In this document: positions 9,657 through 62,843 of the stretch, in pieces
Numbering within the stretch: the stretch's first letter is position 1
Layout: each line of letters begins with the position of its first letter
NCBI GenBank assembly: GCA_016235585.1
Contig: JACRJY010000023.1
Span: 30,560 to 94,559, forward strand
Direction of reading: 5' to 3'
Origin: Verrucomicrobiota bacterium
GTDB taxonomy: Bacteria; Verrucomicrobiota; Verrucomicrobiia; Limisphaerales; JACRJY01
DNA: 64,000 nucleotides
Notes under the pieces: generated by a model
What the model was told of the DNA's origin: nothing
Database searches by the model: none
What the model saw: the letters and a program-made list of their open reading frames with translations, nothing else
Translations under genes and position numbers: made by a program

Positions 9657-9772
9657 ATTCCGAAAACCGAAGCGCGAAGGCCGAAGGAATGCCGAAGCCC
9701 GAAGCCCGAAATCCGCGCCTTCGGGTTTCGGGCTTCGGTTTTGGTTCGGAATTCGGAATTCGGAATTCGATG
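9657..9772. repeat. ccgaa/ttcgg-rich imperfect long palindrome followed by GGAATTC heptamer x3
   Basis: The inner perfect stem is gaagcccgaaa ... tttcgggcttc. The outer arms are attccgaaaaccgaagc / gcttcggttttggttcggaat. At 9748-9768, ggaattc occurs three times in tandem, creating three EcoRI sites. Confidence 0.75.
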
Positions 9773-17988: not shown

Positions 17989-18051
17989 ACGGTGCGCTGC
18001 TAGACCGGCATGGCTGGGGAAAGGTTTCAGATCGAATTCCGAAAACAGCGT

Positions 18052-18540: not shown

Positions 18541-18547
18541 AATTTCG

Positions 18548-24500: not shown

Positions 24501-25012
24501 TTGCCGCCGTTGAGGAGGAGTGCATTGACCCTGCTGTCGAAATCCGCCGAGAAATTCGGGTCGAGCGTCCGATCCGGCAGGATGTGGGCGAGACGAGATT
24601 TTGACACACCGTCCACGACGATGAAGTTGCCGCCGACAAACCAGCCGCCATTGCCGTCCGGGATGGCGGTGTTCACGTCGCCCACGAAGCGCGGGAAGTT
24701 CGGCAGCGGGCTGCCATTCGTCGCGTAGATGATGGCCGCGTGACCGGTGTTGGTGCCGACTTCCGTGAACGCGCCGCCGATATAGACCACGCCGCCCTGC
24801 TCGACAATGGCGCTGACCTGGCCGTTGGGAATCATGAAGTCGCCCCGGGGCACGCTCTGCAACGGCAACTGCCCAAACGCGGCGGACAGGAACAGGGATG
24901 AGGCCAGCACGCCCGCGAAAAACAGCCGCAGAGTCAAATACACCCCGGCGGATGCCAAACCACCCCGATGGTCATCCGGGACATTGTGCCGCGTCATGCT
25001 CGCCGCCTTCAT
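18548..25012 (-). CDS. giant surface protein: N-terminal signal/anchor, beta-propeller repeat region (delta-60/DUF5122-like), 10 tandem ~110-aa cadherin/Ig-like repeats, ~80-aa C-terminal tail domain
   Basis: 2154-aa uninterrupted ORF. The hydrophobic N-terminus is LTLRLFFAGVLASSLFLSAAFG. Blades of the form LFVGGxFTxVxNxxRxRLAAV recur over ~22.4-24.9 kb. Ten repeats end in VNDAPTL and contain DDGGTxNGGVDxxTNTF. The protein ends in ...RRLFRLIRP. Confidence 0.9.
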   Translation of the reverse strand: MKAASMTRHNVPDDHRGGLASAGVYLTLRLFFAGVLASSLFLSAAFGQLPLQSVPRGDFMIPNGQVSAIVEQGGVVYIGGAFTEVGTNTGHAAIIYATNGSPLPNFPRFVGDVNTAIPDGNGGWFVGGNFIVVDGVSKSRLAHILPDRTLDPNFSADFDSRVNALLLNGGNLVVGGNFTRVVNTVNGTPVLTNACYRLVVLDPASGTVRPMASALAFSGEVLALLAIENTLYVGGGYLRVTNVLAESVTNVVSRVSMTAVDLTTGQPTPFQADASTNIILGFPALTVVSSLATDGARLFMGGSFTSILNNAVAPYVFPRRLFAAVDKDTGVPLTNGWLDFSSSPRALAVGSNALYIGGGFLNVTQWAFDQITSTYTNQIFSRTRLAALNLSDDTVNTHWTPQTDTTVETLFFAGTNIFVAGSFNSVTENDNFGSAYAKKRVVAITSSTTSDSLVWNGFNVDAGGTVNTIASDGTGAMFIGGGFQFVKGTPRHRLAAFNARTGQLLPWNPRANNNVVALVGIGSNIWAGGDFTFLTNSSNLPVPRGRLAALDTNLGNPVASFTNGANDTVRALIPSETNLFVGGDFFRVTNGSTALLRTNVARMSLSNGVFDTNFTAHVGMAGAVVTTNNISSLALSGTNLYLGGPFTSVNGVKRHGLAAVNFTSGVVNTNWRCDVGDSNVFALAVHSNSLFVAGQFTRLTNYSGTNAITNARNRLAAVSLADGIVTSWNPIISAPSVSPNVMSLATRSTNVYAGGQFIIIANRARGRLAEINTSTNISVSINYTTAWNPDASDTVWALYATSNRLFAGGSFATIGTNSIGRFAVFEITSEMLVFTNTLTYTVGQPPLVVDDSVTIRDPDPVLLTNALISFDSNATSLYVSFEDYLLFDFTNGITGTFDPACGQLALSGAASLAQYDEALRSVRYFNTNSATTNLAAFTPGLRRVRFTADGHSAARPINVIAVNLPPAVDPIVSLTMLEDSGLTNITLTGISSGGGITQMLAFTVTTGNPVLFTNQTVNYTNPAGTGVLRFSSRTNQSGTATFTVVLTDDGGTFNGGVDAVTNTFEVVVLPVNDIPTLAVLTNQIILEDAPLQTVPLTSIAAGGGETQNLTVTAASSDPLIIPNPTVSYTSPATNGSLSYAPLPDASGIVTITVTVQDDGGTDNGGVDTLIRTFMVTVLSTNDAPTLTLLSNLTLNEDAGPQLLNLTGITAGGGETQTLTVTAFSSDTNIIAAPVVAYASPDTTSTLNFTPLTNAFGTVTLTVIVRDDGGTANGGLDALTNTFSVVVRSVNDPPTLNAVSNMVLALNARPQTNVLTGITGGPTNEVTLEGQFVAFPPELQVVSDTNLISSVTVSYTLPGTTAQLVFTPAASQFGTATTITLVAQDSGATTNGGVNAVTNTFTVTVRATNAAPTLEFPANPVVILEDVSQAIVLGNISAGLENQPLTVTAVSSDTNIVASATVVYSSPDSTGQLVLRSATNTSGTATITVTVRDDGGTDGGGVDTFTTNLTVVVLPVNDVPVLAAVTNLTILEDAAPTNLTLTIVAPGGGSDEGSQIVTLTAFISESVVPVFVTDTNVLAPPVLNFTPGTNYPATGTLTLTPLTNAFGTVTITVLARDDGGTDGGGVDTLTNTFRVVVTNVNDAPTMNPFSNLILAINAPVQYVPMTGIAPGPSNESTQFLAFNRSVSASPPALLTTTGVTNTYIAPRSTGMLSFKPAANQVGTATITVTILDSAGTVNGGRNSRTNTFTVTVLPTNSTPTLALETNALTTLEDAGPQVISVTNITAGLENQILTLRAVSSDSNLVTFLATNYTSPNTTGQIVFAPAPNATGTAIITVSVKDDGGTTAGGVDTVASVFTVTVLPVNDAPTLDAPSNLTILEDSGVLAINLTNISAGVGETQGLTFAAFSSDTNILTAPVVSYTSPDNFGSLTFATVTNVGGTVTISVLVQDDGGTASGGVDALTNTFTITVLPVNDAPTLDPITNLTVADNAGTVAVNLGGIGTGAANEAQAISITASSSDSGIVVVTNISHVSPGATGSLALAPVPGASGVATISVVVQDDGGTADGGVDAVTNTFTVTVERSAPPVLLINRAPGGVAVSWPQAASNFVLQTTTNLTVPAPFPWSNSTSVPSLSGSNWVVTNDASGRRLFRLIRP
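18784..22125 (-). repeat. 10 in-frame tandem coding repeats, ~330 bp (~110 aa) each
   Basis: I counted ten units by hand in the translation. Each has the form PTLxxxxNLTLxEDxxxxxxxLTGIxAGxxExQxLTxTAxSSDxxIxxxxxVxYxSPxxxGxLxFxPxxNxxGTxTITVxVxDDGGTxxGGVDxxTNTFxVxVxxVNDA. Confidence 0.85.
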
Positions 25013-25080
25013 TTTGAGGTGGGGTTCTCATAACAAATCCCCCGCCGGTGCGCCATTCATTTTTCGTCAGCCCCAAGTCG

Positions 25081-25232
25081 GGGGAGCACACCCGCCCCGG
25101 GTGTGGCGGGATGCGCCCTCGCATCCTGCCCCGTGGCGCGAACCATGGCCGTGAAAATTTTGTATGGTTTCGGGCCACGCCGGGTTTTCCGCGAGGGCGC
25201 GGAAAACTGCACGCGAGGCGCGTGCGCTCCCC
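25081..25232. repeat. compact 152-bp copy of the GGGGAGCGC-TIR element
   Basis: It runs ggggagcacacccgccccgggtgtggcgggatgcgccctcgcatcc ... ttttccgcgagggcgcggaaaactgcacgcgaggcgcgtgcgctcccc. Its reverse complement aligns to 18052-18115 (about 95% over 60 nt) and to 18495-18540 (2 mismatches in 46). Confidence 0.8.
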
Positions 25233-25246
25233 GCTCGGCTTCGGGT

Positions 25247-26851
25247 TCAGTTCTTCGCCGCCGCCTTTTTCTTCGCGCCTTTCGGTGCCGCCTTGTCGGC
25301 GGGCGCGCCGCTGGCAACCGGCACGTCGTTCGTCTGTGCCGGGCCGGGCGTGCTGCGACCATCGCGCTGGTATTTTTCCAGCAGCGCCTTCAGCTCGCGC
25401 ACCTTGCCGGGCTGGTCGGCGAAGTGATTATGCCGCTGGGCAACATCTTCACGCACGTTGAACAACTCGCCGGGCGCAGCGGACTTCGCGTAGCCGCGCT
25501 GCTCCTTGAGCCACGGCGGTTCGCCACGCGCGCCGTTGTCGTCGCCGGTCGGCGCGTCAATGAGCACCCAGTCGCCCTTGCGGATGGCGAACTTCCCCGA
25601 AGCCGCGTGATGCACGGTCGCCTCGCGCAATGGCTTCGGATACGGCTCGCCAAGAAAAACCGGCAGCAGGCTGTAGCTGTCCGGCGCGGCAGAGTCGGGA
25701 AGTTTCGCGCCGAGAATCGCCGCGACCGTCCGCATGAAATCCACGTGGCAGATGGTTTCGCCGCTCACCGCGCCCGCTTTGATTTTCCCCGGCCAGCGTG
25801 CGAGGAACGGCACGCGATGGCCGCCCTCCCAGAGGTCGCGCTTCGCGCCGCGCAGTTCGCCCATGCTCCAGTGCTGGAACTGCGTCACCCGGTCATACGC
25901 GCCGGGGTTCACTTCGCCGGTGATTTCCGGGCCGTTGTCGCTGGTGAAGATGACGAGCGTGTTGTCGGCAACCCCGCTGCGCTGGAGCGCGGCGAGCACC
26001 TGTCCTGCCGTCCAGTCGGTCTGAACGACAAAATCACCAAAATCCCCTGCCCCGCTCTTCCCCTTGAACTCCGGCGCGGGCACCACCGGAAAGTGCGGCG
26101 ACGTGAGCGGGAAATAGAGGAAGAACGGCTGGCCCGACTTCGCCGAATCCTCGACCCACTTCACCGCGCGCTTCGTCAACTCCGGCAGAATGTTCACCAG
26201 CTTCCAGCCGGGCAGCATCGGGCCGGGGATGTTGAACTGCTCATCGCGTCCGCCCTCGCGCACCGACGGGATGCCGACGGTGCGGTCGTTCTCGATAAAG
26301 CAATACGGCGGGTAGTTCGGCACTTCGGTGCCGAAGTAGTAATCGAAGCCGCGCGTGGTCGGGCCGTCGGTCACGGGCTTCGAGAAATCCACGTTGCTCA
26401 TTGGATTCGTCCGGCCCGAGGGCGGCTGGCCGTCCTTTGTCGCCCACGTCCAGCCGAGGTGCCACTTGCCGATGGCGGCGGTCGCGTAACCATGCTGCTT
26501 GAGCAGCGTCGCGACCGTGAGCCGGTCGGGTGCGATGAGCGGCGGGGAATACGGGCCGAGCACATTGCGCTGAAGCCGCGTGCGCCACGAGTAGCGGCCC
26601 GTGAGCAGCGCGTAGCGCGTCGGCGTGCAGACCGAGTCGGGCGAATGTGCGTCGGTGAAGCGCATTCCCTCGCGCGCGAGTTCGTCAAGATGCGGCGTGG
26701 GGATTTTGGAATCCTTGTTGTAGCAGCCGAGGTCGCCGTAGCCGAGGTCGTCGGCGAGGATGAAGACGATGTTCGGCTTCGCGGCGTCGGCCAACCACGG
26801 AAGACACAGAAGACACGGAAGGAGGAGGCGGAGAAATGATTTTGGGTTCAT
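25247..26851 (-). CDS. sulfatase, secreted
   Basis: 534 aa. Starts MNPKSFLRLLLPCLLCLPWLADA. Also IVFILADDLGYGD and CxPxR VCTPTRYALLTGR. Tail AAPKGAKKKAAAKN. Confidence 0.9.
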   Translation of the reverse strand: MNPKSFLRLLLPCLLCLPWLADAAKPNIVFILADDLGYGDLGCYNKDSKIPTPHLDELAREGMRFTDAHSPDSVCTPTRYALLTGRYSWRTRLQRNVLGPYSPPLIAPDRLTVATLLKQHGYATAAIGKWHLGWTWATKDGQPPSGRTNPMSNVDFSKPVTDGPTTRGFDYYFGTEVPNYPPYCFIENDRTVGIPSVREGGRDEQFNIPGPMLPGWKLVNILPELTKRAVKWVEDSAKSGQPFFLYFPLTSPHFPVVPAPEFKGKSGAGDFGDFVVQTDWTAGQVLAALQRSGVADNTLVIFTSDNGPEITGEVNPGAYDRVTQFQHWSMGELRGAKRDLWEGGHRVPFLARWPGKIKAGAVSGETICHVDFMRTVAAILGAKLPDSAAPDSYSLLPVFLGEPYPKPLREATVHHAASGKFAIRKGDWVLIDAPTGDDNGARGEPPWLKEQRGYAKSAAPGELFNVREDVAQRHNHFADQPGKVRELKALLEKYQRDGRSTPGPAQTNDVPVASGAPADKAAPKGAKKKAAAKN

Positions 26852-35501: not shown

Positions 35502-38500
35502 ATGAAATCCGCATCAATCCGGCGATTTTTCCTCGCTGCTGCCCTGTGCCTCGCCGCGGCGGCCCCCGTTGCCGCCCAAGTGCTGAACCAGGCCTCGGTG
35601 ACGCGCTACAACAACGGCCTCGTCGTGCCCACGACGGACATCCCGGCGAAAATTGTCGTGGACAGTTCCGCCAACAGCTACGTCGCCGGCTCGTCCGGCG
35701 GCGACATCATCACGACGAAATACGACGCCAGCGGGAGCGGTGTCTGGACCAACCGCTACAACGGCCCGGCCAGCGGCAACGACGCGGCGACCTCGGTGGC
35801 GGTGGACGCCAGCGGCAACGCCTACACCGCCGGCTACTCGGAGGGGACGGGTTCCGCCAGCGATTTTGTGGTGATCAAATATGACAGCACAGGCACGCCG
35901 GTGTGGACAAACCGCTACAACGGCACGTTGAACGGCGACGATCAGGCCCGGGCGCTGGCCGTGGATGCCACGGGCAACGTATACGTCTCCGGCGGCGCGC
36001 AGAGCCTCGGTTCGTCGTATGATTTCGTGACCATCAAATATAATTCGAGCGGCACCCCGCAGTGGACGAATATTTACAACGGCCCCGCCAACAGTTCCGA
36101 CAAGGCCGCCGCGCTGGTGATCGATGCCACGGGCACCAACCTCATCGTGACGGGTGAATCCACCGGCAGCGGCACGGGCCTGGACTACGCCACCATCAAA
36201 TACCAGCCCAACGGCACGGCCATGTGGACCAACCGATTTTCCGGTGCCGGCAACCGTTCGGACATTCCCGTGGCGATCGCTTTTGACAACACGGTGAACA
36301 ACAATGTTTTCGTCACCGGCTCGTCCTCCGTCTCCGGCTCCGGCAATGACTACGTGTCCGTCAAATACAACGGCACCACGGGCGCCCCGGTCTGGACCAA
36401 CCGCTATAACGGCACGGGCAACAGCAGCGACCAGCCGGTGGCCATCGCCGTGGACAGCGCCCGCAATGTCTACGTCACCGGCTATTCCTACGACTCCGCC
36501 AGCTCCTACGACATCGCCACGGTCAAATACGATTCCGTCGGCAACGGCGTCTGGACCAACCGCTACAACGGCACGCAGAACGCGGACGACCAGGGCAAGT
36601 CAATCTTCCTCGACGGCGCGGGCAACGTCTACGTGGCCGGCACCTCGGACAATGCCGGCTCCTCCTACGACTTCACCGTCATCAAGGTGGACACCGCCCA
36701 GGGCACCAACGTCTGGAGCTTCAACTACAACGGCCCCGGTAACGGCCCGGACGTCGCCGCCTCCCTCGCGCTCGACAGCTCCGGCAACATCTACGTGACC
36801 GGTGCCTCCGAGGGCAGCGGCACGGGCGCGGACTTCGCCACGGTGAAGCTCGATTCCTCCGGCGCGCAGCAGTGGGCGGCCCGCTACAATGAATTCATCA
36901 ACGGCGCGGACGAACTCGTCGCCCTGGCCGTGGACAGCGAGCGGAATGTTTATCTCGCCGGGCGCTCCGTGGGCCTGGGTTCGGGCGTGGACTACGTCGT
37001 CGTCAAGCAGAATTACTCCGGCGCAACTGTCTGGATCAGCCGTTACAACGGCGACGCCAACGGCGACGACGCCCTCACCGCCCTGACCGTGGACGCCAGC
37101 GGCAACGTGTATGCCACCGGCACCTCGGACGGCGACTACGTCACCGTCAAGTATTCCGCCAACGGTGCGGCAATTTGGACCAACCGCTACAACGGTCCGG
37201 GCAATGCCAGCGATATTCCCGCCGCCATTGCGACCGATGCCGGCGGCAATGTCGTGGTGACCGGCTCCTCCGCCGGGAGCGCCGGCGACCGGGACTTCGC
37301 CACCATCAAATACAACTCCAGCGGCGCCGGAGTCTGGACCAACCGCTACAACGGCCCCGGCGCGAGCGACGACGAGGCGATCGCGCTCGGCCTTGACACC
37401 AGCGGCAACGCCTACGTCACCGGCAGTTCCCTCGGCACGAGCAGCGGCGCGGACTACGCCACGATCCGGATCAACGGCACGACCGGCGCGGGCGTGTGGA
37501 CGAACCGTTATGACGGCCCGGTGAACGACTACGACATCCCATCGGCGATCACGCTCGACGGCAGTGGCAATGTGATCGTGACCGGCCAATCGATTGGCGA
37601 CGCCTATTATGAGGACTACGCTACAGTGAAATACAACGGCAGCGGCGTGGCCCAGTGGACGAACCGTTATTCATACATCCTTACGAATATTACCGAAAGC
37701 CCGCCTCTCTCGGGCATTTTTTATACGAACCTCACTGAAGTGTCCGACATCGCCCGCGCCATTGCAGTCGATTCCAGCGGCAACGTCTACGTGACGGGTT
37801 ATTCTTACGGATCGGATCCGTTTAGCTTCGGTGGTGGCGGCAGCCTGAAAGACATCGCCACCATCAAATACAGTTCCGCCGGATCGCAGGTGTGGGTGAA
37901 ACGCTTCAACGGCCCGGCGGGCACCTTGAATGACGAGGGCACGGCGGTGGACGTGGATGCTGCGGGCAACGTGTATGTGACCGGCTCCGCGGAAAGCGCC
38001 GGCACCGGCAGGGACTTTGCCACCATCAAATACAACTCCGGCGGCGCGGCGGTCTCCACCAACTACTACGACGGCCCCGGCAGCCGGGCGGACGTGGCGA
38101 CGGCGGTGGACGCCCGGGGCGTGTATAACGTCATCGTGGCGGGCACCTCCCCCGGCAGCAGCGGCGAGGCCGACTTCGCGGCCATTCTCTACTACCACAC
38201 CAACGCCGCCAACGTGGCCCCCACGGCGGACGCGCAGTCCGTTTCCACCCTCGAGGACGCCGCCCTGCCCATCACCCTGACCGGCGGCGACGCGAACAGC
38301 GACGCCCTCTTCTACGTCATCATCACTCCGCCGGCCAACGGCACTTTGACCACCATCGCCCCCAACGTGACCTATCAGCCGAACGCGGGCTACGTCGGCG
38401 CGGACAGCTTCACCTTCAAGACCTCCGACGGCCTGCTGGAATCCGCCGCCACCACGATCAGCATCACCGTCAACGGCGTGAACGACGCCCCGGCCTTGAG

Positions 38501-41500
38501 CGCCTTCACCAACATGGTCTTCGTCGGCGTGGCGGGCGGATCCACCCTGCCCTTCACCATCACCCAGCCGGCGAATGAAAACACCCAGACCATCACCGTC
38601 ACGGCCACCTCCAGCAATCCCTCCCTCATCCCGTCGCCGCTCACGGTCAACTACACCAGCCCGAACTCCACCGGCAACATCACCTTCACGCCGGTCGCCA
38701 ACGCCAGCGGCTCCGCCCTCATCACCGTCACCTCCAGCGACAACGGCGGCACGGCCAACGGCGGCGTGGACTCCACCACGCAGACCTTCGTGGTGACCGT
38801 CTATCGCGCCCTCGTGAAGGATCCGCGCGTCAACTTCCCCGTGGCCAACGGCCCCATCTTCACGATGACCGAGACGAACAACACCCTCTTCATCGGCGGC
38901 GGCTTCACCGAGGTCGGCACCAACTCCGGCAAGGCGGACGCCTTCTACGCGACGAACGACGCGGCGGTGGGCACTTTCCCGCAGGTGGACCGGCAGGTCT
39001 TCGCCGTCATCCCCGACGGCGCGGGCGGCTGGTATCTCGGCGGCGACTTCACCACGGTCGGCGGCCTGCCGCGCTCGCGCCTCGCGCACGTGCTCGCGGG
39101 CGGCACGGTGGATCCGGGCTTCACCGCGCAGGTGGACAGCACGGTGAGCGCGCTCTACCTCAATGGCACGAACCTCTACGTCGGCGGTTTGTTCGTGCGT
39201 GTGACGAATGTCACCGGAACCGTGATCACCGGGATCAGCAACCGCGTGCGCTTCGCCGTGCTGGACAAGGATTCCGGCGCGGTTCGCGACCTCGGCTCCA
39301 ACCCGTCCTTCGACAACCAGGTGCTTGCGCTGCTCGCCACCAGCAACACCGTTTATGTCGGCGGCATCTTCACCAACATCACCAACATCATTGCGGGGCC
39401 GACGACCATCGTGAGCAACAGAAATCTTCTCGCGGCGATTGACCTCTCCAGCGGACAGTTGCTCTCGAGTTTTGCGGCACACTGCAATTCCAACAGCGGC
39501 AACGCGGTTCGCGCCCTTGCCTTGAGCGGCACCAATCTTTACTTCGGTGGTGACTTCAACACGGTTTCCAATGGCACGACCGCCTTCACCAACTTCCGTC
39601 TCGCCGCCGTCAACTACACCTCCGGCGTGCCCAAGGTGGGTTTCCGCGCCGACCTCCAGGCCCGCGCCCGCGCGCTGGTGGTGAACGGCAACGACCTCTT
39701 CGTCGGCGGTGATTTCACCAGCATCACCAACACGCTGGGCGGCACGCAGACGAACCGCAACCGCCTCGCGGCCGTCGCGCTGACCAACGGCCTCGTCCGG
39801 TTGTGGAATCCCAACGCCGGCAATGTCATCCGCTCCATGGTTCTCGCCGACACGAATCTTTATGTGGCCGGCGATTTCACAAACATCCTTGGCACGAATG
39901 CCCTTGGGTATTTCCGGCGCCGGCTGGCGGCGGTGAGCACCAACACCGCCAACACCAACCAGGTCATCAGCGCCTTCAACCCGGCCGCCAGCGATCTCGT
40001 CAACGCGGTCGCGGCCTCCGGCGGCGTGATCGCGGCGGGCGGCAACTTCAGCTTCCACCACGGCCTCATGCGCCAGCGCCTGGCGGCCATCGCCACGGAC
40101 ACGGGGGAGATCACAGACTGGGATCCCACTCCGAACAACACCGTCCTGGCCATGACCCTTTACGGCACCAACCTCATCATCGGCGGGCAGTTCACCGCCA
40201 CGCGGTATGGCACCGGCAACCGGCTGGCGGTGATCACCACGAATGACGGCAGCTTCGTCGCCGGCATCACCAACGGCCAGTTTGACAACACCGTCCGCGC
40301 CCTCGCGGTGTCGGGCACACGGGTGTTCGCCGGGGGTGACTTCACCATCGTGACCAACAAGGTGGGCGCGTTTGAGCGTTCCCGCGTCGGCCTCATGGCC
40401 CTCGACATGAACCTCAACGGGGCCACCGCCACGGACTTCATCGCGGACGCCCTCCTGACCGGCGGCAGCAACGTGCTCGCGCTCGCCGCCAGCGGCAGCA
40501 CGCTCTACGTGGGCGGCACCTTCACCAACATCAGCGGCCAGACCCGCTGGCGGCTGGCGGCGGTGGACGCCGCGAACGGCGACATCATCCCCGGCTTCTT
40601 CGTGGATGCCAACAACACCGTGCAGGCGCTCATGCTGCGCGGCAACGTGCTCTACGCGGGCGGTGCGTTCACCAGCCTCACCAACAGCCCCGGCGCGGCG
40701 GGCGGAACCCGCAACCGCATCGCCTCGCTGGCCCTGCCCAACGGCGGGATTACGTCGTGGAACCCGAGCGCGGGCGGCACGATTTACGCGCTGGACACGA
40801 TTGCCACCAATGTCTACGTCGGCGGCTCCCTCACGGGAACCACTGGCGGCCAGTCCCGCAACCGCATGGCGGAATTAAGCTCCACCTTGAACACCGCCAC
40901 GGCATGGAACCCGGACAGCGACAACACGGTGTTCGCCCTCGTCGCCCGCAATGGCAGCCTCTACGCCGGCGGCCAGTTCACCCAGTTGGGCGGCCTCACG
41001 TCCGGCACGGGCGTTTCCCGCCAAGGCCTCGTGTCCTTCGACACGAACAGCGCGCCGGTCAACATCTCGCCCACGATGAACACCCTCGCCAACCTCACCC
41101 TCAACGAGGACGCGAGCCAGACCACGGTCAACCTCTCCGGCATCAGCGCCGGCCCGCCCTCCGAGAGCAGCCAGATCCTCACGCTCACCGCCACCTCCGG
41201 GAACACCGCCTTGATTCCCAACCCGCTGACCGTCACCTACACCGACCCGGACACCACCGGCAGCATCAGTTTCACGCCCACCGCCAACGCCAGCGGCTCG
41301 GCCACCATCTCGGTCGTGCTGACAGATGATGGCGGCACGGCCAACGGCGGCCTGAACAAGACCACGAACACCTTCCGCGTCACCGTCTTCTCCGTGAACG
41401 ACGTGCCGACCCTCAACGCCCTCGCCAGCGTGACCTGGAACGAGGATCCCGGCGCCAAAAGCGTCACCCTCTCCGGCATCGGCAGCGGCGCGGCCAACGA

Positions 41501-44500
41501 GAGCCAGGTGATCACCATCACCGCGACCAACAACAACCCCGCCCTCTTCAGCGCCATGAGCGTCACCTACACCAGCCCGACGAGCACCGGCACGCTGAAC
41601 TACACCCCTGCGGCCAACGCCTTCGGCACCGCCACTGTTTCCGTCGTCGTCACGGACAACGGCAGCACCACCAACGGCGGCATTGATTCGGTGACGAACA
41701 CCTTCTCCGTCGTCGTGAACTCGGTCAACGACACCCCGACCCTCGACGCGCTGGGCAACCTCACGGTGAACGAGAATGGCAACCTGCAGACCATCAACCT
41801 CACGGGCATCTCCTCGGGCGCGGCCAATGAAAGCGCCCAGGTGCTCACCGTCACCGCCACGTCCAGCACCCCCGGCCTCATTCCGAACCCCAATGTCAGC
41901 TACGCCAGCCCGGACGCCACCGGCACGATCACCTTCACCCCCGTGCCCAACGCCTCGGGCACGGCGACCGTCTCCGTCACGGTGAACGACGGCGGCGGCA
42001 CGGCCAACGGCGGGGTGGAATTCCTCACCCGCAGCTTCACCGTCGCCGTCACCGGCGTGAACAACGCGCCGACCCTCAATGCCATCGCCAGCCTCACCCT
42101 CAACGAGGACATCAGCACCAACATCACCCTCACCGGCATCAGCGCGGGCCCGGGCGAGAACCAGACCATTTCCGTCGCGGCCACTTCCAGCAACCCGGGC
42201 GTGGTGCCCAACCCGGTCGTGACCTACACCAGCGCCTTGAGCACCGGCTCGCTGGCCATCACCCCGGCGGCCGACGCCAGCGGCTCGGCGGTCATCACCG
42301 TCGTCGTGAGCGACAACGGCGGCACCGGCAACGGCGGCGTCAACGCCGTCACCAACGCCTTCACCGTGACGGTCAATTCCGTGAACGACGCGCCGGTGAT
42401 TGACGCCGTCGCCAACCTCACGCTCAACGAGGACGCGGGCGGCCAGTCCTTGAACCTCACAGGCATCAATGCCGGCGGCGGCGAGAGCCAGACACTCTCC
42501 CTCACCGCCAGCAGCAGCAACACGGCAGTCATTGACGGCGTCAGCCCGACCTACACTAGCCCGAACAGCACCGGCACGCTCGCCTTCTCCACGGTGCCCG
42601 ACGCCTACGGCACGGCCACCATCACCATCATCATCACCGACACCGGCGGCACGGCCAACGGCGGCGTCAGCGCCGTCACGAACACGTTCAGCGTGGTGGT
42701 CAATTCGGTGAACGACACGCCCGCGATGACCCCGCTGGGCACGCAGTTCCTCGGCTACAATTCCGGCGCGAATGTCCGCAGCCTGGCCGGCATCTCCGCC
42801 GGCCCGGCAAACGAAAGCGGGCAGACGATCTCCATCACGGCCACCTCCGGCAACCCGACGCTGCTGCCCGATCCCGTGGTCGGCTACACCAGCCCGAACG
42901 GCACCGGCACACTGACCATGACCGTCAACGCGGCGCAGAGCGGCACATCGCTAATCACGGTCGTCGTGAGCGACACGGGCGGCACGGCCAACGGCGGCGT
43001 GGACGCCTACACCAACACCTTCGTGGTGAATGTGAACGCGGGAAACACCGCGCCGGTGATCAACGACCAGTCCCTCACGACCGCCGAGGACACGGCCTTG
43101 AACTTCATCCTCGACGCGACCGATCCCGACCCCGGCAACACGGTCACGGTGACGATCCTCACCAACACCCTGCACGGCACGCTGTTCATCGCCAGCCAGA
43201 CAAACGTCACCTACTACCCGGCGCGCAACTACGCCGGCCTGGACAGCTTCCACTATCAGGCGACCGACGGTTTGCTGACCGCCACGGGCACCGTGACCAT
43301 CACGATCACCAACGTGTCCGACCTCTATCCGTTCGTCTTCTCGAACGCCCTGACCCTCCCCGCCGGGGCCAATCCCTCGGCCATCGTGGCGGCGAAGTTC
43401 TACAAGAAGATTGACCTGGCGGTGGCCAACTATGCGGACAACACCGTCAGCATCTTCTTGGGCACCGGCGGCGGGATTTCCACCACCAATCCCGCGTTCC
43501 AGGCGGGCGGTCTTTTCACCAACGCCATTCCCGCCACCGTGGCCGTGGGCCAGGGCCCGGTCGCGCTGGCGGTGACGGACATCACCAAGGACAAGTCCAA
43601 CGATCTCGTCGTGGTGAACCGGCTCGGTGGCAGCGTCCAGCTCCTCCAGGGCAACGGCGGCGGCGGGTTCACCGTCGTGTCCACCACTTCGCTGGGAGCC
43701 GGCTCCGCACCCAGCGGGGTGGCCGTCGGCGACTTCAACAAGGACACGCACCTCGACCTGGCCGTCATCTGCGAGTCCAACAACACCGTGGTCATCTTGA
43801 ACGGCAACAGCACCGGGACTTTCACACCGTTCCGCACCAACGCCGTCAGCGGCCGCCCGATGGCCATTGTCGCCGGGGACTTCAACAAGGACATGAAGAT
43901 TGATCTCGCGGTGGCGAACTACGACAGCAACACGGTCAGCGTCCTCTTCGGCGGCGGCACGGGCCTCTTCAGCAACAAGAATGACTTCGCCGTGGGCCAG
44001 GGCCCGACCGCGCTGGTGGCCTTCGACTTCAACAAGGACGGCCGCGTGGACATCGCCGCGGCCAATTACCAGGACGACACCGTCAGCATCCTGCGGAGCG
44101 TGCTCGTCACCAACGCCTTCATCGCCGGCAAGCCGGTGACGAGCAACACCTTCACGCTGACCAACTATCCGGTGGCCGTCAACCCGAGCGCGCTGGCCGC
44201 CGTCAACGTCAACAAGGATCTCTACACCGACCTGGTCATTGCGAGCCACTTTGAAAACACCGCCAGCGTGATGCTGGGCAAGGCCAACGGGCAGTTTGAT
44301 GATTTCTACTTCCTCGACCCCTCGGCGTCGCAGACGGTGGGGACGAACCCCATCTCGCTCGCCTCCGGCATCCTGAACGCCGACACGGATCCGGACGTGG
44401 TGGTGGCCAACTGGGGTTCGGGCAACGTCTCGGTGCTGCTGAACAACTACACGCCGCTGGCCTACAAGCTCAAGCTGAACGTGCTGGAAAACACCACGAC

Positions 44501-45797
44501 GCTGCCGGAGGGCAGCCGCTCGACCATCATCAAGCTGCAGGGCACCTACGGGCCGTTGAACTACGTCTTCGTCACCCTGCCCACCAACGGCACCTTCACC
44601 AGCACCAACGGCTCGCTGACCCGCGCGCTGACCGGGCCGGAGCTGCGCTACGAGACCTTCCCCAACTCCAACGGCAAGGATCTGTTCAGCTACTACGTGC
44701 AGGAATACAACACCAACGGCGGCGGCAAGGTCTCCGCCGTGGCCAAGGTGGAGATCGTGGTCCTCGCGGTGAACGATCCGCCGGACTTCGATTTCGCCAG
44801 CAACAGCGTCACCGTGCTGGAGGACGCGCCGAAACAGGCCGTCACCAACTTCGCGGTGAACCTGGATCGCGGCGCAAGCTTCCATCCGACCGAAGCCAAG
44901 CAGACCATTTTATTCGTCGTGACCAACAGTTCCTCGAACCTCTTCAAGGTTCAGCCGGCCATCACGGACAAGGGGCTGCTCACCTTCCAGTCGCTGCCCA
45001 ACGCCCACGGCGTGGTGGACGTGGGCGTCGTGATGAAGGACAAGGGCGGCACGCTCAACGGCGGCGACGACACCGGGGACTTGAAGATGTTCACCATCAC
45101 CATCGTGCAGTCCAACGACAAGCCCGCCCTCAAACTGCTCTCCGCGCCAAAATCCATCAACGAGGACACCACCGGCCAGGCCGTGTTCACCGTCTATGAC
45201 GTGGAAACGCCGCGGGAAAACCTGATCTACCGTGTGGCGAACGTGACCAACACCACCCTCTTCCCCGACGTGAACGGCAACACCTTCACCGTCGTGGGCG
45301 ACACCTCGACCAACTTCGTCTGGGGCTGGACCAACGCGACCAACCGCACGCTGACGATTGTCCCGGCGACCAACCAGTTCGGCACCAACGTCGTCTGGAT
45401 CCAGGTGGATGACGGGACCAACACCACGACCATCACCCAGACCGTCGCCATCGCCTCGATCAACGACGCGCCCTCCTTCACCGTCGGCACCAACGTCATC
45501 GTCACGGGCACCGCCCAAATCACCCGCCTGCTTCCCGGCTGGGCCAGCAGCATGAGCCGCGGCCCGGCCAACGAAAACTCGCAGACGCTGACCTTCGTGC
45601 TGAAGGCGGCAAGCACCACGATGTTCTTCGTCAGCCCGGCGGTGGATTCCGCCAACGGCACGCTCACCTTCACGCCCAAGACCGGCGTCACCGGCTCCAC
45701 GACCGTGAGCATTTACCTGAAGGACAACGGCTCAAGCACGGCGCCCAACAAGGCCTACTCCACCACCAACACGTTCACCATCCAGATCAACCCGTAG
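35502..45797 (+). CDS. giant (3431 aa) multi-module surface protein: SBBP beta-propeller repeats, cadherin/Ig-like domains, delta-60/DUF5122-like propeller, 110-aa tandem repeats, FG-GAP/VCBS propeller, further Ig-like domains
   Basis: The ORF opens at 35313; the signal-peptide start MKSASIRRFFLAAALCLAAAAPVAAQ is at 35502. The frame is uninterrupted to the TAG at 45795-45797. A canonical terminator follows. Confidence 0.9.
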   Translation: MKSASIRRFFLAAALCLAAAAPVAAQVLNQASVTRYNNGLVVPTTDIPAKIVVDSSANSYVAGSSGGDIITTKYDASGSGVWTNRYNGPASGNDAATSVAVDASGNAYTAGYSEGTGSASDFVVIKYDSTGTPVWTNRYNGTLNGDDQARALAVDATGNVYVSGGAQSLGSSYDFVTIKYNSSGTPQWTNIYNGPANSSDKAAALVIDATGTNLIVTGESTGSGTGLDYATIKYQPNGTAMWTNRFSGAGNRSDIPVAIAFDNTVNNNVFVTGSSSVSGSGNDYVSVKYNGTTGAPVWTNRYNGTGNSSDQPVAIAVDSARNVYVTGYSYDSASSYDIATVKYDSVGNGVWTNRYNGTQNADDQGKSIFLDGAGNVYVAGTSDNAGSSYDFTVIKVDTAQGTNVWSFNYNGPGNGPDVAASLALDSSGNIYVTGASEGSGTGADFATVKLDSSGAQQWAARYNEFINGADELVALAVDSERNVYLAGRSVGLGSGVDYVVVKQNYSGATVWISRYNGDANGDDALTALTVDASGNVYATGTSDGDYVTVKYSANGAAIWTNRYNGPGNASDIPAAIATDAGGNVVVTGSSAGSAGDRDFATIKYNSSGAGVWTNRYNGPGASDDEAIALGLDTSGNAYVTGSSLGTSSGADYATIRINGTTGAGVWTNRYDGPVNDYDIPSAITLDGSGNVIVTGQSIGDAYYEDYATVKYNGSGVAQWTNRYSYILTNITESPPLSGIFYTNLTEVSDIARAIAVDSSGNVYVTGYSYGSDPFSFGGGGSLKDIATIKYSSAGSQVWVKRFNGPAGTLNDEGTAVDVDAAGNVYVTGSAESAGTGRDFATIKYNSGGAAVSTNYYDGPGSRADVATAVDARGVYNVIVAGTSPGSSGEADFAAILYYHTNAANVAPTADAQSVSTLEDAALPITLTGGDANSDALFYVIITPPANGTLTTIAPNVTYQPNAGYVGADSFTFKTSDGLLESAATTISITVNGVNDAPALSAFTNMVFVGVAGGSTLPFTITQPANENTQTITVTATSSNPSLIPSPLTVNYTSPNSTGNITFTPVANASGSALITVTSSDNGGTANGGVDSTTQTFVVTVYRALVKDPRVNFPVANGPIFTMTETNNTLFIGGGFTEVGTNSGKADAFYATNDAAVGTFPQVDRQVFAVIPDGAGGWYLGGDFTTVGGLPRSRLAHVLAGGTVDPGFTAQVDSTVSALYLNGTNLYVGGLFVRVTNVTGTVITGISNRVRFAVLDKDSGAVRDLGSNPSFDNQVLALLATSNTVYVGGIFTNITNIIAGPTTIVSNRNLLAAIDLSSGQLLSSFAAHCNSNSGNAVRALALSGTNLYFGGDFNTVSNGTTAFTNFRLAAVNYTSGVPKVGFRADLQARARALVVNGNDLFVGGDFTSITNTLGGTQTNRNRLAAVALTNGLVRLWNPNAGNVIRSMVLADTNLYVAGDFTNILGTNALGYFRRRLAAVSTNTANTNQVISAFNPAASDLVNAVAASGGVIAAGGNFSFHHGLMRQRLAAIATDTGEITDWDPTPNNTVLAMTLYGTNLIIGGQFTATRYGTGNRLAVITTNDGSFVAGITNGQFDNTVRALAVSGTRVFAGGDFTIVTNKVGAFERSRVGLMALDMNLNGATATDFIADALLTGGSNVLALAASGSTLYVGGTFTNISGQTRWRLAAVDAANGDIIPGFFVDANNTVQALMLRGNVLYAGGAFTSLTNSPGAAGGTRNRIASLALPNGGITSWNPSAGGTIYALDTIATNVYVGGSLTGTTGGQSRNRMAELSSTLNTATAWNPDSDNTVFALVARNGSLYAGGQFTQLGGLTSGTGVSRQGLVSFDTNSAPVNISPTMNTLANLTLNEDASQTTVNLSGISAGPPSESSQILTLTATSGNTALIPNPLTVTYTDPDTTGSISFTPTANASGSATISVVLTDDGGTANGGLNKTTNTFRVTVFSVNDVPTLNALASVTWNEDPGAKSVTLSGIGSGAANESQVITITATNNNPALFSAMSVTYTSPTSTGTLNYTPAANAFGTATVSVVVTDNGSTTNGGIDSVTNTFSVVVNSVNDTPTLDALGNLTVNENGNLQTINLTGISSGAANESAQVLTVTATSSTPGLIPNPNVSYASPDATGTITFTPVPNASGTATVSVTVNDGGGTANGGVEFLTRSFTVAVTGVNNAPTLNAIASLTLNEDISTNITLTGISAGPGENQTISVAATSSNPGVVPNPVVTYTSALSTGSLAITPAADASGSAVITVVVSDNGGTGNGGVNAVTNAFTVTVNSVNDAPVIDAVANLTLNEDAGGQSLNLTGINAGGGESQTLSLTASSSNTAVIDGVSPTYTSPNSTGTLAFSTVPDAYGTATITIIITDTGGTANGGVSAVTNTFSVVVNSVNDTPAMTPLGTQFLGYNSGANVRSLAGISAGPANESGQTISITATSGNPTLLPDPVVGYTSPNGTGTLTMTVNAAQSGTSLITVVVSDTGGTANGGVDAYTNTFVVNVNAGNTAPVINDQSLTTAEDTALNFILDATDPDPGNTVTVTILTNTLHGTLFIASQTNVTYYPARNYAGLDSFHYQATDGLLTATGTVTITITNVSDLYPFVFSNALTLPAGANPSAIVAAKFYKKIDLAVANYADNTVSIFLGTGGGISTTNPAFQAGGLFTNAIPATVAVGQGPVALAVTDITKDKSNDLVVVNRLGGSVQLLQGNGGGGFTVVSTTSLGAGSAPSGVAVGDFNKDTHLDLAVICESNNTVVILNGNSTGTFTPFRTNAVSGRPMAIVAGDFNKDMKIDLAVANYDSNTVSVLFGGGTGLFSNKNDFAVGQGPTALVAFDFNKDGRVDIAAANYQDDTVSILRSVLVTNAFIAGKPVTSNTFTLTNYPVAVNPSALAAVNVNKDLYTDLVIASHFENTASVMLGKANGQFDDFYFLDPSASQTVGTNPISLASGILNADTDPDVVVANWGSGNVSVLLNNYTPLAYKLKLNVLENTTTLPEGSRSTIIKLQGTYGPLNYVFVTLPTNGTFTSTNGSLTRALTGPELRYETFPNSNGKDLFSYYVQEYNTNGGGKVSAVAKVEIVVLAVNDPPDFDFASNSVTVLEDAPKQAVTNFAVNLDRGASFHPTEAKQTILFVVTNSSSNLFKVQPAITDKGLLTFQSLPNAHGVVDVGVVMKDKGGTLNGGDDTGDLKMFTITIVQSNDKPALKLLSAPKSINEDTTGQAVFTVYDVETPRENLIYRVANVTNTTLFPDVNGNTFTVVGDTSTNFVWGWTNATNRTLTIVPATNQFGTNVVWIQVDDGTNTTTITQTVAIASINDAPSFTVGTNVIVTGTAQITRLLPGWASSMSRGPANENSQTLTFVLKAASTTMFFVSPAVDSANGTLTFTPKTGVTGSTTVSIYLKDNGSSTAPNKAYSTTNTFTIQINP
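35640..38190 (+). repeat. ~15 SBBP-type beta-propeller coding repeats (~55-60 aa each)
   Basis: The recurring pattern is W[TV]NRYNGxxNxxDxAxA[IV]AVDxxGNVYVTGxSxxxxxxxDYATIKY. I counted 15 occurrences of the RYNG-type core. Confidence 0.8.
41070..43322 (+). repeat. ~7 in-frame tandem coding repeats of ~330 bp (110 aa)
   Basis: The units begin PT(L/M)N... and end ...VNSVND(A/T). The 21-nt core ggcggcacggccaacggcggc (GGTANGG) recurs at about 38750, 41330, 41996, 42650 and 42978. Confidence 0.85.
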
Positions 45798-60071: not shown

Positions 60072-62843
60072 TCAGGTCGAGACCCCCAGCCAGCCGCGCG
60101 TCACCTGGAAATCCGCGTTGCCATCGGCCTGCGCGCGCGGCTGGTGTTTGCCGGCCAGCGTGTCGGCCAGCAATTGAACGAGCGCGCGGGCCGTCGCGAT
60201 TTCATCCGGCTGGTCGAGCACCAGGTCCACTTCGGAGGAAACCGCCGCCACGCTCACCTGCAAGGTCGGCACGAAGGGATGCGCCTGCGCCGGGGCGTCG
60301 CCCACAAAGGCGAGCAGCAGTTCCACGCCGCACGCGCCCAGCCCGGTGAACGCCTCGACGAGGTGCGTGCCCGCCGATTCCATGACGTGAAAGCCGGGCT
60401 TCGCCGCGATGCCGCCGTAAGCCAGCGTGGGCGCGGGCGGCGAATCAAACAGTTCGCGGGCGAAGGCGGGCGTCGCCAGCAACGGCGAAGTTTGCGGCAC
60501 GACGACCGTGCCGCCGTTCTCCACGAGTGCGCGGGTGAGGAGCGCAAGCGCCGCCGCGATTTTGTCCGGCACTTCGCCGTTCGCAGCGAGACCAAGGCGG
60601 AAGTTTTTTCCAGATGCACGGGGAGCGCACGCGTCTCGCGTGCCGTGTTCGGCGTCCCGCCGAACACTTTCCCGCGCGGAGTCCGCAGCGGGGACGCTGC
60701 GGACAGCAGCCGGGACGGCTGCGCTCCCCTGTTCAAACCACTTCACCACTTTTTCCGTCACGTTCTCGATGCCGCCGTCGAGCTGGATGCTCGCGAAGCC
60801 CATCCGCGAATAGTCCATGTCGTGCGCGGCGAGGAAGTTGCGGATGGCGTCGTTGTGCGTCTTCTCGCAGCCGTGCTCGACGAGGCACACGCGCTCGGCC
60901 AGCGGATGCGCGGCGTAACCGGCGATGGTCTGCTCCAGAATCTCCACCGCCTCGCCGGAGACGCCGCAGCCCTCGGTGTGCGGCAGCGCGACGTAGCGCG
61001 GCGTGGCGTCGCCGCGCGTGGCGTTGAGTTTGTCGGCAATCATCCGGCTGATTTGCCCGGCGCAAAGACTCGTGGGAATGATGAGGCGGGTGCGCCACGC
61101 TTCGGAAGGACAAGCTGCGCGAGTCCCCAACTGGGCCAGGAAATTTGTGGGACTCGCGTAGCTCGTCCCTCCGACGGCAAGCTTCAGCTTCACCGGTTCG
61201 CCAGCGGGCTTCGGACGGCTGGCGAACTGCGGCAGCGACTTCACCGAGGTCTGCCGCCACTCGCGCCAGAGCTGCGCCTGCGAGTGGCCGGCCTTTTCAC
61301 CGACGCTCTTCATTCCCGACACGACGCGCATCGTGTAGTCGAACGCCTCCGCGCCGAGCCGCTCCATCGGCTCGCCGTCGAGGTAGCGGCCCGCGTTGAA
61401 ATCCATGTCGCGGCTCAAGAGATTGAAGCGCGGCGTGTTGGTCATCAGCTTGATGGTCGGCACGAAGGGATGGTTCGTGATGGAGCCGTTGCCTGTGCTG
61501 AACAAAATCAAGTTGCAGCCCGCCGCGACCTGGCCGGCGATGCTTTCGAGGTCGTTGCCGGGGCTGTTCATGAAGCAGAAGCCCGGCTCGCGCATCGGCT
61601 CGCCGTAGCCGATGACGTAGTCCAGCCGCACCGCCGGGTCTTTCTTGCGCGCCGCGCCGATGGATTTGATGGCGATGTTGTAGAGGCCGCGAAAGATGTT
61701 GCCGCCGCTGGGATTCGTCTGCCCGCTGACGCCGTGCCACGAGAGCTTCTCCTCGAACTCCTTGAGCGTGTCCAAAAACTTCCGCGCCGTGGCGAGGTCG
61801 CGGACTTTGGCGAGCACATACGGCTCCGCGCCCATCAGTTCGTCCGTCTCCGCGAGATTCGCCGAGCCGCCGTGGCGGACGGTCTCGCGCGCGATGATGC
61901 CGACGACGGGATTGCCGGACACGCCGCTAAAGGCGTCCGAGCCGCCGCACTGCAAACCAATCTTCAGGTGGCGCAACGGCTGTTCGGTGCGCGGCGTGGA
62001 ACTGGCCTGGAGCAAAAGTTCCTCCACGAGTTTCGCGCCTGCCGCGACGTTCGCCGCGAAATCCTTTCCGAGCCGGAAGAAGTGGTGCGGCACGGCGTCG
62101 AGCGGATAATGGTTCGCGCGCATCCAGTCGCGGAGCGCGTCGTTGTTAATCGGCTCGTGGCCGTAATCCACCGCGAGCACCGCGCCGACGTTGGGATTCG
62201 TCACCCAGCCCGCGAGCGTGCGGAGCGAGAGTTCGAGATTGTTGGGCCGGCCCGCTTCGCCGCCCTCGGTGTGCGCGACGGCAACCACGCCGTCGAGGTT
62301 TGGAAATTTTTCCGGCGCATCCTTGAACTTCGAGGCCAGCACACGCGCGAAACTGCCCGTGAGCGAGCTAGTGCCGAGCACGACGACATAGTTGCGCGTG
62401 CCCGCGCCGCGCCCGCCGTTGCGGGCAAATCCAAGGAAAGTGCGCGGGCTGGCGTAGAGCGGCACTTGCTCGGCGGGCAGGAAGTTTTTCTCGTCGAGCG
62501 TGCAGGGCTGGAAATAGTCCGTGAAGTTCGGCTCCGCCGGAATTTCAAAACCCACGTGCCGCGAGTGCAGCGCCTCGATCATCGTCGCGTTGCACACGTA
62601 GTCACCCGGCGCGAGCGGACGCAGCGCGCGACCAAACGGCTGTCCCCACGACGTGAGCATTTGTCCTGCGGCGACCGGGGCGACGACGAAGCGATGCGCC
62701 TCCAGCACCGTGTGCGACAGCGCGAAACTCCGCTCCGGCATCACGACGACCGTGCCCGCGTCGAGGCGGCGGATGGCGATGGCGCAATTGTCACCAGCGG
62801 CGGGGAGGCGGCCAGCCTGGGCAAAATTCAGTGCTTCACTCAC
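60072..62843 (-). CDS. UxaA (altronate/galactarate dehydratase) family protein with a second, divergent UxaA-like module
   Basis: 923 aa. Module 1 has an N-terminal SAF-like segment NCAIAIRRLDAGTVV, then VVAVAHTEGG, GLQCGGSDAFSG and NLILFSTGNGSITNHPFVPTIKL. Module 2 has YVALPHTEGCG, LGLAANG and ELLLAFVGDAPAQAHPFVPTLQV. Confidence 0.8.
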   Translation of the reverse strand: MSEALNFAQAGRLPAAGDNCAIAIRRLDAGTVVVMPERSFALSHTVLEAHRFVVAPVAAGQMLTSWGQPFGRALRPLAPGDYVCNATMIEALHSRHVGFEIPAEPNFTDYFQPCTLDEKNFLPAEQVPLYASPRTFLGFARNGGRGAGTRNYVVVLGTSSLTGSFARVLASKFKDAPEKFPNLDGVVAVAHTEGGEAGRPNNLELSLRTLAGWVTNPNVGAVLAVDYGHEPINNDALRDWMRANHYPLDAVPHHFFRLGKDFAANVAAGAKLVEELLLQASSTPRTEQPLRHLKIGLQCGGSDAFSGVSGNPVVGIIARETVRHGGSANLAETDELMGAEPYVLAKVRDLATARKFLDTLKEFEEKLSWHGVSGQTNPSGGNIFRGLYNIAIKSIGAARKKDPAVRLDYVIGYGEPMREPGFCFMNSPGNDLESIAGQVAAGCNLILFSTGNGSITNHPFVPTIKLMTNTPRFNLLSRDMDFNAGRYLDGEPMERLGAEAFDYTMRVVSGMKSVGEKAGHSQAQLWREWRQTSVKSLPQFASRPKPAGEPVKLKLAVGGTSYASPTNFLAQLGTRAACPSEAWRTRLIIPTSLCAGQISRMIADKLNATRGDATPRYVALPHTEGCGVSGEAVEILEQTIAGYAAHPLAERVCLVEHGCEKTHNDAIRNFLAAHDMDYSRMGFASIQLDGGIENVTEKVVKWFEQGSAAVPAAVRSVPAADSARESVRRDAEHGTRDACAPRASGKNFRLGLAANGEVPDKIAAALALLTRALVENGGTVVVPQTSPLLATPAFARELFDSPPAPTLAYGGIAAKPGFHVMESAGTHLVEAFTGLGACGVELLLAFVGDAPAQAHPFVPTLQVSVAAVSSEVDLVLDQPDEIATARALVQLLADTLAGKHQPRAQADGNADFQVTRGWLGVST
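60620..60729. repeat. 110-bp GGGGAGCGC-TIR hairpin-chain element lying inside the UxaA-like CDS
   Basis: It is bounded by ggggagcgca ... tgcgctcccc. It contains four consecutive hairpins: gcacgcg/cgcgtgc, gtgttcggcg/cgccgaacac, gtccgcagcg/cgctgcggac and gcagcc/ggctgc. The first 24 nt differ by 1 nt from the start of the 18052 copy. Confidence 0.8.

Follow-up and report, generated by a model that had tools for sequence, protein, structure and literature searches.

In-frame repetitive extragenic palindromic (REP) sequences inside bacterial genes have been reported, most numerously in Opitutus terrae (Verrucomicrobia), with the Rickettsia palindromic elements (RPEs) given as the precedent of intragenic REPs (Di Nocera, De Gregorio and Rocco 2013, PMC3733652). 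Among the O. terrae genes that contain REPs are the two copies of uvrA, dnaE2, and the genes for DNA ligase and tRNA ribosyltransferase-isomerase. RPEs are described there as palindromic non-coding repeats that lie in frame in many functional genes and are tolerated as surface peptide (Ogata et al. 2000, cited in PMC3733652). In Pseudomonas and E. coli, REPs form inverted doublets (REPINs) and flank a single-copy gene for a Y1 HUH transposase, the REP-associated tyrosine transposase (RAYT); these REPs have a GTAG head and one hairpin per unit and are almost wholly extragenic (Nunvar 2010; Bertels and Rainey 2011; 4ER8). Here we describe a 110-nt element at 60620-60729 of a 64,000-nt stretch of Verrucomicrobiota contig JACRJY010000023.1 (the whole stretch analysed is referred to as the window). 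The element lies in frame within a gene for a two-module UxaA/GarD-family hydrolyase. It is most probably a REPIN-type doublet of a Verrucomicrobiota-wide, RAYT-associated repeat family; the protein would accommodate it in frame as a disordered loop between domains. The phenomenon is already known, and the finding opens no new mechanism; it adds a further member to a known kind.

The first-pass annotation of the window had described a chain of four hairpins with terminal inverted repeats at this site, and the sequence (+ strand, GGGGAGCGCACGCGTCTCGCGTGCCGTGTTCGGCGTCCCGCCGAACACTTTCCCGCGCGGAGTCCGCAGCGGGGACGCTGCGGACAGCAGCCGGGACGGCTGCGCTCCCC) is as described. Four perfect hairpins, HP1 to HP4, are enclosed by a perfect 10-nt terminal inverted repeat, in which GGGGAGCGCA (60620-60629) pairs with TGCGCTCCCC (60720-60729) on the + strand. 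The hairpins are arranged as two inverted REP units around a short spacer (Table 1). The second unit has the architecture of the unit at 18151-18204, with compensatory changes in its stems. The gene-strand RNA of 60610-60740 folded at -82.7 kcal/mol, relative to -60.6 ± 4.1 kcal/mol for shuffled sequences (z = -5.4), and none of 200 shuffles was as stable. Of the six reading frames of the element, five contain no stop. Within the 923-aa open reading frame (ORF) of the host gene, the element extends from position 3 of codon 705 to position 1 of codon 742 without an in-frame stop, which agrees with the read-through noted in the first-pass annotation. Its translation is QGSAAVPAAVRSVPAADSARESVRRDAEHGTRDACAPR, found in the protein as ...WFEQ-GSAAVPAAVRSVPAADSARESVRRDAEHGTRDACAP-RASGKNFRLGLAA..., and Gly, Ser, Ala, Arg and Pro are abundant in the inserted peptide.

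The host protein is 100% identical to P0001, an NCBI protein from a metagenome-assembled genome (MAG) named 'UxaA family hydrolase [Verrucomicrobia bacterium]'. Pfam analysis revealed GD_AH_second in two stretches (best 138-280) and GD_AH_C at 291-529. The protein has the two-module UxaA/GarD-type form, in which SAF, GD_AH_second and GD_AH_C domains are followed by a second, degenerate module. Its score with the galactarate dehydratase model TIGR03248 was 169.5, far below the cut-off of 730.85; therefore, no substrate is assigned to the enzyme. More than 100 full-length homologues of ~880-900 aa showed 50-72% identity to it. In the homologue alignment, a conserved W-F is followed by a variable linker of 10-20 residues, which is extended to ~40 residues in the host protein. 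Family-invariant residues are retained on both sides of the insert, including all of those downstream.

BLASTP of module 1 against module 2 matched residues 154-244 with 587-674 and residues 411-466 with 807-863, and the insert (705-742) lies between these matches. It separates the 'second-domain-like' and 'C-domain-like' halves of module 2, a position corresponding to the Pfam boundary at 280-291 in module 1. The AlphaFold model of the host protein (mean pLDDT 79, pTM 0.79) gave pLDDT values below 50 for residues 708-745, flanked by a helix (692-705) and a strand (749-755); the 10-residue block of the strand had a mean pLDDT of ~92. The insert is accordingly predicted by the model to be a disordered loop of ~37 residues between well-modelled domains. 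The module comparison, the Pfam boundary and the predicted loop all place the element at the junction between the two halves of the second module, where the first-pass annotation had put it. A scan of 60300-61000 revealed no terminator-like or promoter-like sites; thus, there was no sign of a split gene. For annotation purposes, the 37 residues would fall outside the enzyme fold and should not be taken as a novel domain.

A comparison with orthologues lacking the insert had been proposed in the first-pass annotation. The closest syntenic orthologue, P0002 (locus L121; 72% identity, with the same ABC-F neighbour gene), has an ordinary, unstructured linker of 19 aa at the insert site, which is rich in Gly, Glu and Arg and is encoded without notable folding (-0.9 kcal/mol). 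In P0003 (L122), the linker at this site is 48 aa long, and its coding sequence is a palindromic repeat unrelated to the 60620 element, of the CCCTCTCCCC/GGGGAGAGGG type (-82 kcal/mol). P0030 (L123) has a normal linker, and another of its loops holds a 78-aa insert of the CCCTCTCCCC type. The occurrence of different repeats at the same linker indicates that this is a permissive site, colonised independently, and the insert marks it as such in two-module UxaA-family enzymes. The window itself has a different palindromic repeat at 791-943 (...CCCTCACCCTGGCCCTCTCCCCTGGGGAGAGGG / CCCTCTCCCCCGGGGAGAGGGCCGGGGTGAGGGG...), whose CCCTCTCCCC/GGGGAGAGGG motifs match by eye the in-frame repeats of the L122 linker and of the 78-aa insert in L123.

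A 24-mer from the element (GGGGAGCGCACGCGNCTCGCGTGC) was scanned against one genome per species. It matched at least 120 genome stretches, nearly all from Verrucomicrobiota; among the matches listed were Chthoniobacterales, Udaeobacter, Opitutales, Verrucomicrobiae, Prosthecobacter, Pelagicoccus and Methylacidiphilum. The matches were often present as +/- pairs, 90-130 nt apart. Each unit of the family consists of a head TCY-GGGGAGCRC, a short hairpin HP1 (loop NCT or NCC) and a 9-10-bp hairpin HP2. In complete elements, which are 71-182 nt long, a spacer of variable length separates two inverted units; 89 such doublets were present in the sampled loci, where single half-units were also found alone. 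Three carriers of the 24-mer bore other labels, namely L011 and L085 (Bifidobacteriaceae/Bifidobacterium) and L083 (Nitrospirota). The MetH context of L085 resembles Verrucomicrobiota loci, and all three are probably mis-binned contigs in those MAGs.

HP2 was perfect in 123 of 150 units, and 82 distinct stems were present among those 123. Covariation was assessed in HP2 only, which is the fair test because HP1 was fixed by the search pattern. In an alignment of 98 sequences, double-sided changes were observed at all 10 pairs of HP2, and 90.5% of HP2 cells were paired. The number of double-change cells was 261, compared with 76 in shuffles; none of 500 shuffles reached the observed value, and slid controls were far lower. 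These findings demonstrate that the family conserves hairpin structure rather than sequence. As far as could be found, this phylum-wide, untagged, two-hairpin family with a RAYT has not been described by sequence in the literature, and the catalogue of REPs gains both the family and its transposase. In alignment A2, which covers units of L001-L120 and of the window, HP1 and HP2 of one unit share their first loop base: C with CCT/CCCT, A with ACT, G with GCT, and T with TCC/TCT. This matching suggests that the two hairpins of a unit are copied or corrected together.

A covariance model (R1) was built from family units. In the window, R1 revealed eight strong units (48-71 bits) and one weak unit. 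Six of the eight strong units had been used to train R1; the other two, 25078-25132 and 18489-18543, nevertheless scored ~49 bits. The strong units form four doublets, three of them intergenic. The first 24 nt of the 60620 element recur exactly at 18052 (+) and 25232 (-), and 18244-18290 is 85% complementary to a 47-nt stretch of it. In the copy at 18151-18305, the parts follow the same order as in the 60620 element, with ~37 extra central nt at the spacer and compensatory stem differences. Intergenic copies had been listed in the first-pass annotation at 18052, 18154 and 25081. All three belong to the family by R1 and are intergenic; however, 18052 and 25081 are the ends of larger doublets (~150 nt or nested) and not 110-nt copies. 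A 9-mer count in the window (6 observed, 2.0 expected; 4 of 100 shuffles reached 6) was weak alone, and the 24-mer and covariance model were therefore used instead. No Rfam family reached the gathering threshold across the whole window, and only chance-level matches (E >6) were obtained at the element.

Table 1. Features of the host gene, the 110-nt element and its relatives. Locations are window positions or, for copies in other genes, locus handles.
Feature	Location	Strand	Details
Host gene, two-module UxaA/GarD-family hydrolyase	60072-62843	-	923 aa; ORF list and Pfam
REP doublet (REPIN-like)	60620-60729		110 nt between outer ends of terminal repeats; encodes host residues ~706-742
REP unit 1	60617-60670	+	head GGGGAGCGC, then HP1, then HP2; R1 71 bits, E ~1e-13
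HP1	60627-60643		7-bp stem, GCACGCG-TCT-CGCGTGC, loop TCT
HP2	60645-60667		10-bp perfect stem, GTGTTCGGCG-TCC-CGCCGAACAC
Spacer between the two inverted REP units	60668-60680		13 nt, TTTCCCGCGCGGA
REP unit 2	60678-60732	-	inverted stem variant: head GGGGAGCGC, then HP4, then HP3; R1 57.9 bits
HP3	60681-60704		10-bp perfect stem
HP4	60706-60722		6-bp stem, GCAGCC-GGGAC-GGCTGC on + strand
Strong REP units (R1), 18-kb region	18049-18103, 18151-18204, 18251-18305, 18489-18543		
Strong REP units (R1), other	25078-25132, 25181-25235, 60617-60670, 60678-60732		
Intergenic composite, same family	18049-18543		outer REP units 18049-18103 (+) and 18489-18543 (-)
Intergenic REP doublet	25078-25235		~152 nt; same subfamily as outer element at 18 kb
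Copy in MetH	L085; also L005		between Hcy domain (26-359) and pterin domain (450-688) in L085
Copy in DnaE2-like polymerases	L047, L086		between HHH_6 and OB domains
Copy in DnaE2-like polymerase	L117		within PHP domain
Copy in UvrA	L069, L080, L111		in frame (Pfam)
Copy in class-I aminoacyl-tRNA synthetase	L012		Pfam
Copy in ATP-dependent ligase	L075		Pfam

A transposase linked to the family was found in related genomes. An ORF of ~146 aa in L005 has a single unit on either side, the two in inverted orientation; an HVH (HUH-type) motif and a ...YICRNPW motif were recognised in this ORF by eye. This ORF scored 31.7 bits with Pfam Y1_Tnp (cut-off 23), and its sole PDB match was E. coli TnpA-REP (4ER8). 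With NCBIfam REP_Tyr_transpos ('REP-associated tyrosine transposase'; cut-off 80), the scores were 82.8 bits for L005 and 78.2 bits for L116. RAYT homologues adjoin family units in L116 and L050 as well, L050 being incomplete at the locus end, and a RAYT flanked by inverted family units was seen in these three related genomes only. Target-site duplication was absent: only 0-1 of the 89 complete elements had matching flanks (k = 2-5). The conserved inverted flanks TCY...RGA are part of the element itself. The family thus has the dispersed hairpin units, inverted doublets, compensatory stem changes and lack of target-site duplication that characterise REPs and REPINs. The REP/RAYT ('REPtron') arrangement makes 'REPIN-like REP doublet' the best description of the window element. 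The 60620 copy departs from the extragenic location of REPs, as it lies inside an ORF; the other three doublets of the window are intergenic.

The REP-RAYT-REP cassettes of L005 (3012-3588), L116 (~1946-2530) and L050 (7625-8000, cut off) are themselves situated within metH, between the homocysteine-binding and pterin-binding domains. The frame is open throughout the L005 cassette, giving an ORF of 1514 aa. The L116 cassette is followed by a stop, and the pterin domain begins anew at an ATG of its own. In all three loci, the RAYT frame runs on from the REP peptide GSARASRA.SGASPE, with no canonical start codon downstream of the 5' REP.

We propose that the family units are substrates of the RAYT, a REP-associated tyrosine (HUH/Y1) transposase, which would act in trans on hairpins in single-stranded DNA and would leave no target duplication. 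In the source genome, a RAYT of this kind may have mobilised one doublet, which would have inserted into the UxaA-family gene at the variable linker between the domains of module 2. Because the frame used contains no stop and the net change kept the frame, the doublet is read as a predicted disordered surface loop of ~37 residues. The enzyme would tolerate this loop as a passenger, not an adaptation. The first-pass annotation had suggested that a non-autonomous repeat was absorbed as coding sequence without breaking the frame. This suggestion is supported, the repeats being dispersed, non-coding and mostly intergenic as a family and the element being read through in frame at the module junction; it can be refined to a REP/REPIN-type, RAYT-tied repeat as opposed to a generic miniature inverted-repeat transposable element (MITE). 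The locus would thus be a clean, well-documented case of a protein that has taken up a selfish palindromic repeat and suffered no harm.

Several observations weigh against this interpretation. The window copy is without the outer TCY/RGA triplets usual in the family, and its length of 110 nt is 2 mod 3; simple cut-and-paste of a canonical unit alone therefore leaves the preserved frame unexplained. The 90% cluster of the host protein has a single member, the next relative being 72% identical, and provides no empty-site allele. A tblastn search of the window, and of the window only, revealed no RAYT gene in the 64 kb. The units have the head TCYGGGGAGCRC and are without the GTAG/CGTC tag that defines most described REP families; the element evidently works like a REP but stands outside the named GTAG/CGTC super-families. 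Finally, the host protein and its insert peptide are known here from sequence alone.

The missing tag also suits a classical MITE, i.e. a deletion derivative of a DDE-type insertion sequence that is mobilised via its terminal inverted repeats and not by REP/RAYT. The size of the elements (100-180 nt) and their terminal inverted repeats of 10-12 nt (TCYGGGGAGCGC) likewise suit a MITE. However, the lack of target-site duplications in 89 elements argues against a DDE-type MITE, and the sole transposase found bounded by units, at three loci, is Y1/RAYT. The stems covary while the sequence drifts, as in REPs, and half-units occur singly; we therefore consider a MITE origin highly improbable. A further possibility is that the hairpin chain is kept in this gene for a role in RNA or DNA, such as a translational pause between the domain halves, an RNase or mRNA-stability site, or a binding site for gyrase or another protein. 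A pause or an RNase site had been suggested in the first-pass annotation. REPs elsewhere stabilise mRNA and affect translation. All four stems of the element are still perfect, its RNA fold is very stable, and it lies exactly at a domain boundary. A young insertion, however, would have equally perfect stems. The closest orthologue has no structure at the position of the element, other orthologues hold unrelated repeats at this or other loops, and copies of the family are scattered over unrelated genes and, for the most part, intergenic DNA. Neither a terminator-like or promoter-like signal (60300-61000) nor an Rfam match was found. A pause or RNase site is speculative, with no result here in its favour, and a retained role of the hairpins appears very unlikely.

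The integrity of the gene was considered in the same way, since the sequence comes from a metagenome-assembled contig, mis-joins typically arise at repeats, and 110 nt is not divisible by three. A pseudogene, two separate genes or a chimeric MAG join at the repeat could in principle account for the arrangement. Against this, the frame is continuous, the flanks of the insert are exactly adjacent in the family alignment, and no invariant residue beyond the insert has been lost. The ABC-F gene lies downstream in the window as in the orthologues, and internal start or terminator signals were absent from the region scanned (60300-61000). A broken or mis-assembled gene is hardly credible on these grounds, and a REPIN-type doublet tolerated as a loop is retained as the best explanation.

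In-frame copies were also present in other genes. Approximately 16 of 150 sampled units (~1 in 10) were located in open frames with a coding GC-position signature on both flanks. Pfam confirmed ten such ORFs, with host domains around the insert (Table 1); QueA-like and MnmA-like hosts (L066, L089) were recognised by eye only. Several spanning ORFs (e.g. L009, L034, L043) were dropped because one flank had a non-coding GC-position profile; these are chance frames in GC-rich DNA. Boundaries between domains hold such copies in MetH, DnaE2, UvrA, the class-I aminoacyl-tRNA synthetase and the ATP-dependent ligase. The encoded peptides recur: one end reads (L/P)GSARASRA..., the other ...TRGACAP(Q/R) or ...AREARALP. 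This is also the frame in which the window copy is read (QGSA...TRDACAPR). Permissive linkers have been colonised repeatedly, in uvrA, dnaE2, metH, ligase and queA, plus the UxaA-family gene. These copies suggest that REPs within genes are general among Verrucomicrobiota and not a peculiarity of O. terrae.

By a rough count, one of three stop-free frames, (L/P)GSARASRA, was used at ~8 of 9 independent sites (L004, L047, L069, L080, L086, L089, L111 and L117, as against L066). A third frame, in reverse orientation (HARRRVRSP), was never seen among genic copies. Orthologous insertions were not rigorously separated, and the frame bias is therefore suggestive only. We consider it unlikely, although conceivable, that the family serves in Verrucomicrobiota as a regular, frame-biased source of interdomain linker peptide, with one in ten copies translated and the same permissive linkers recolonised. 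If so, the element and its transposase would exploit host translation, or host genes would exapt the element; the alternative is mere tolerance.

The family resembles the O. terrae REPs of PMC3733652 in its phylum (Verrucomicrobia), in being read in frame as REP singles or dimers with inserts of ~7-50 aa, in its hosts (uvrA, dnaE2, ATP-dependent ligase, queA and tRNA synthetases) and in its RAYT 'REPtrons'. It differs from them in its head, TCYGGGGAGCRC, in its two hairpins and in lacking a GTAG or GTGG tag. The present peptides (GSARASRA..., ...TRGACAP, AREARALP) did not match GTGVPPV, HGRDARAT or VAGVADPGPGSASPA of O. terrae in the portion of the supplement covered. The O. terrae families GTAG-17, -18 and -19 encode other peptides there, indicating that the present family is distinct. 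The UxaA-family host is absent from part 1 of 3 of that supplement, and a search of the supplements for the term 'altronate' returned nothing. By our own back-translation, the HP1 core CACGCG-TCT-CGCGTG bears no more than a loose resemblance to a coding sequence for HGRDARAT, the peptide given in the supplement under both GTAG-19 and GTAG-17. The same host genes (uvrA, dnaE2, ATP-dependent ligase and queA) hold different REP families, in frame, in O. terrae and in the sampled genomes. Such shared hosts point to common permissive linkers, or to a link with genes that process single-stranded DNA.

Relative to the Pseudomonas and E. coli REPIN/RAYT systems, the family shares inverted doublets, a REP-flanked single-copy Y1 HUH transposase gene, covarying stems and no target duplication. 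In contrast, it has two hairpins per unit and a G-rich head, and ~1/10 of its copies are genic. RPEs share with the present family the character of palindromic repeats that are tolerated in frame in functional genes; their host lineage is alphaproteobacterial and unrelated, their sequences are probably unrelated too, and RPE-1 is longer. The likeness to RPEs is one of behaviour only. A link to RAYTs is reportedly no part of the original RPE description.

The intergenic relatives of the element lie in a region with sulfatase and giant-protein genes. The 18-kb composite is flanked by a sulfatase gene (16603-17988, -) and the gene for a giant Big_9 protein (18548-25012, -), and the 25-kb doublet occupies the gap between the giant gene, which starts at 25012, and a sulfatase gene, whose stop is at 25247. 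The composite is a nested cluster, in which a complete 149-nt doublet (18151-18305) lies inside an outer doublet (18049-18543) together with a weak extra unit at 18400-18453. The inner element is bracketed by a short inverted repeat, GCCGAATCCATGC/GCATGGATTCGGC.

Other repetitive features were observed in the window. A 50-nt imperfect inverted repeat at 9661-9769 is composed of short CGAAG/GCCGAAG-like motifs (CGAAAACCGAAGCGCGAAGGCCGAAGG... / TTCGGGTTTCGGGCTTCGG...). The giant gene at 18548-25012 (-) is a Big_9-containing ORF of 2154 aa with repetitive coding units of ~327 nt, and a second giant repetitive coding region, at ~35600-45100, has periodic units of ~159 nt and ~330 nt. Several sulfatase paralogues are present between 7 and 28 kb, two of which were confirmed (16603-17988 and 25247-26851).

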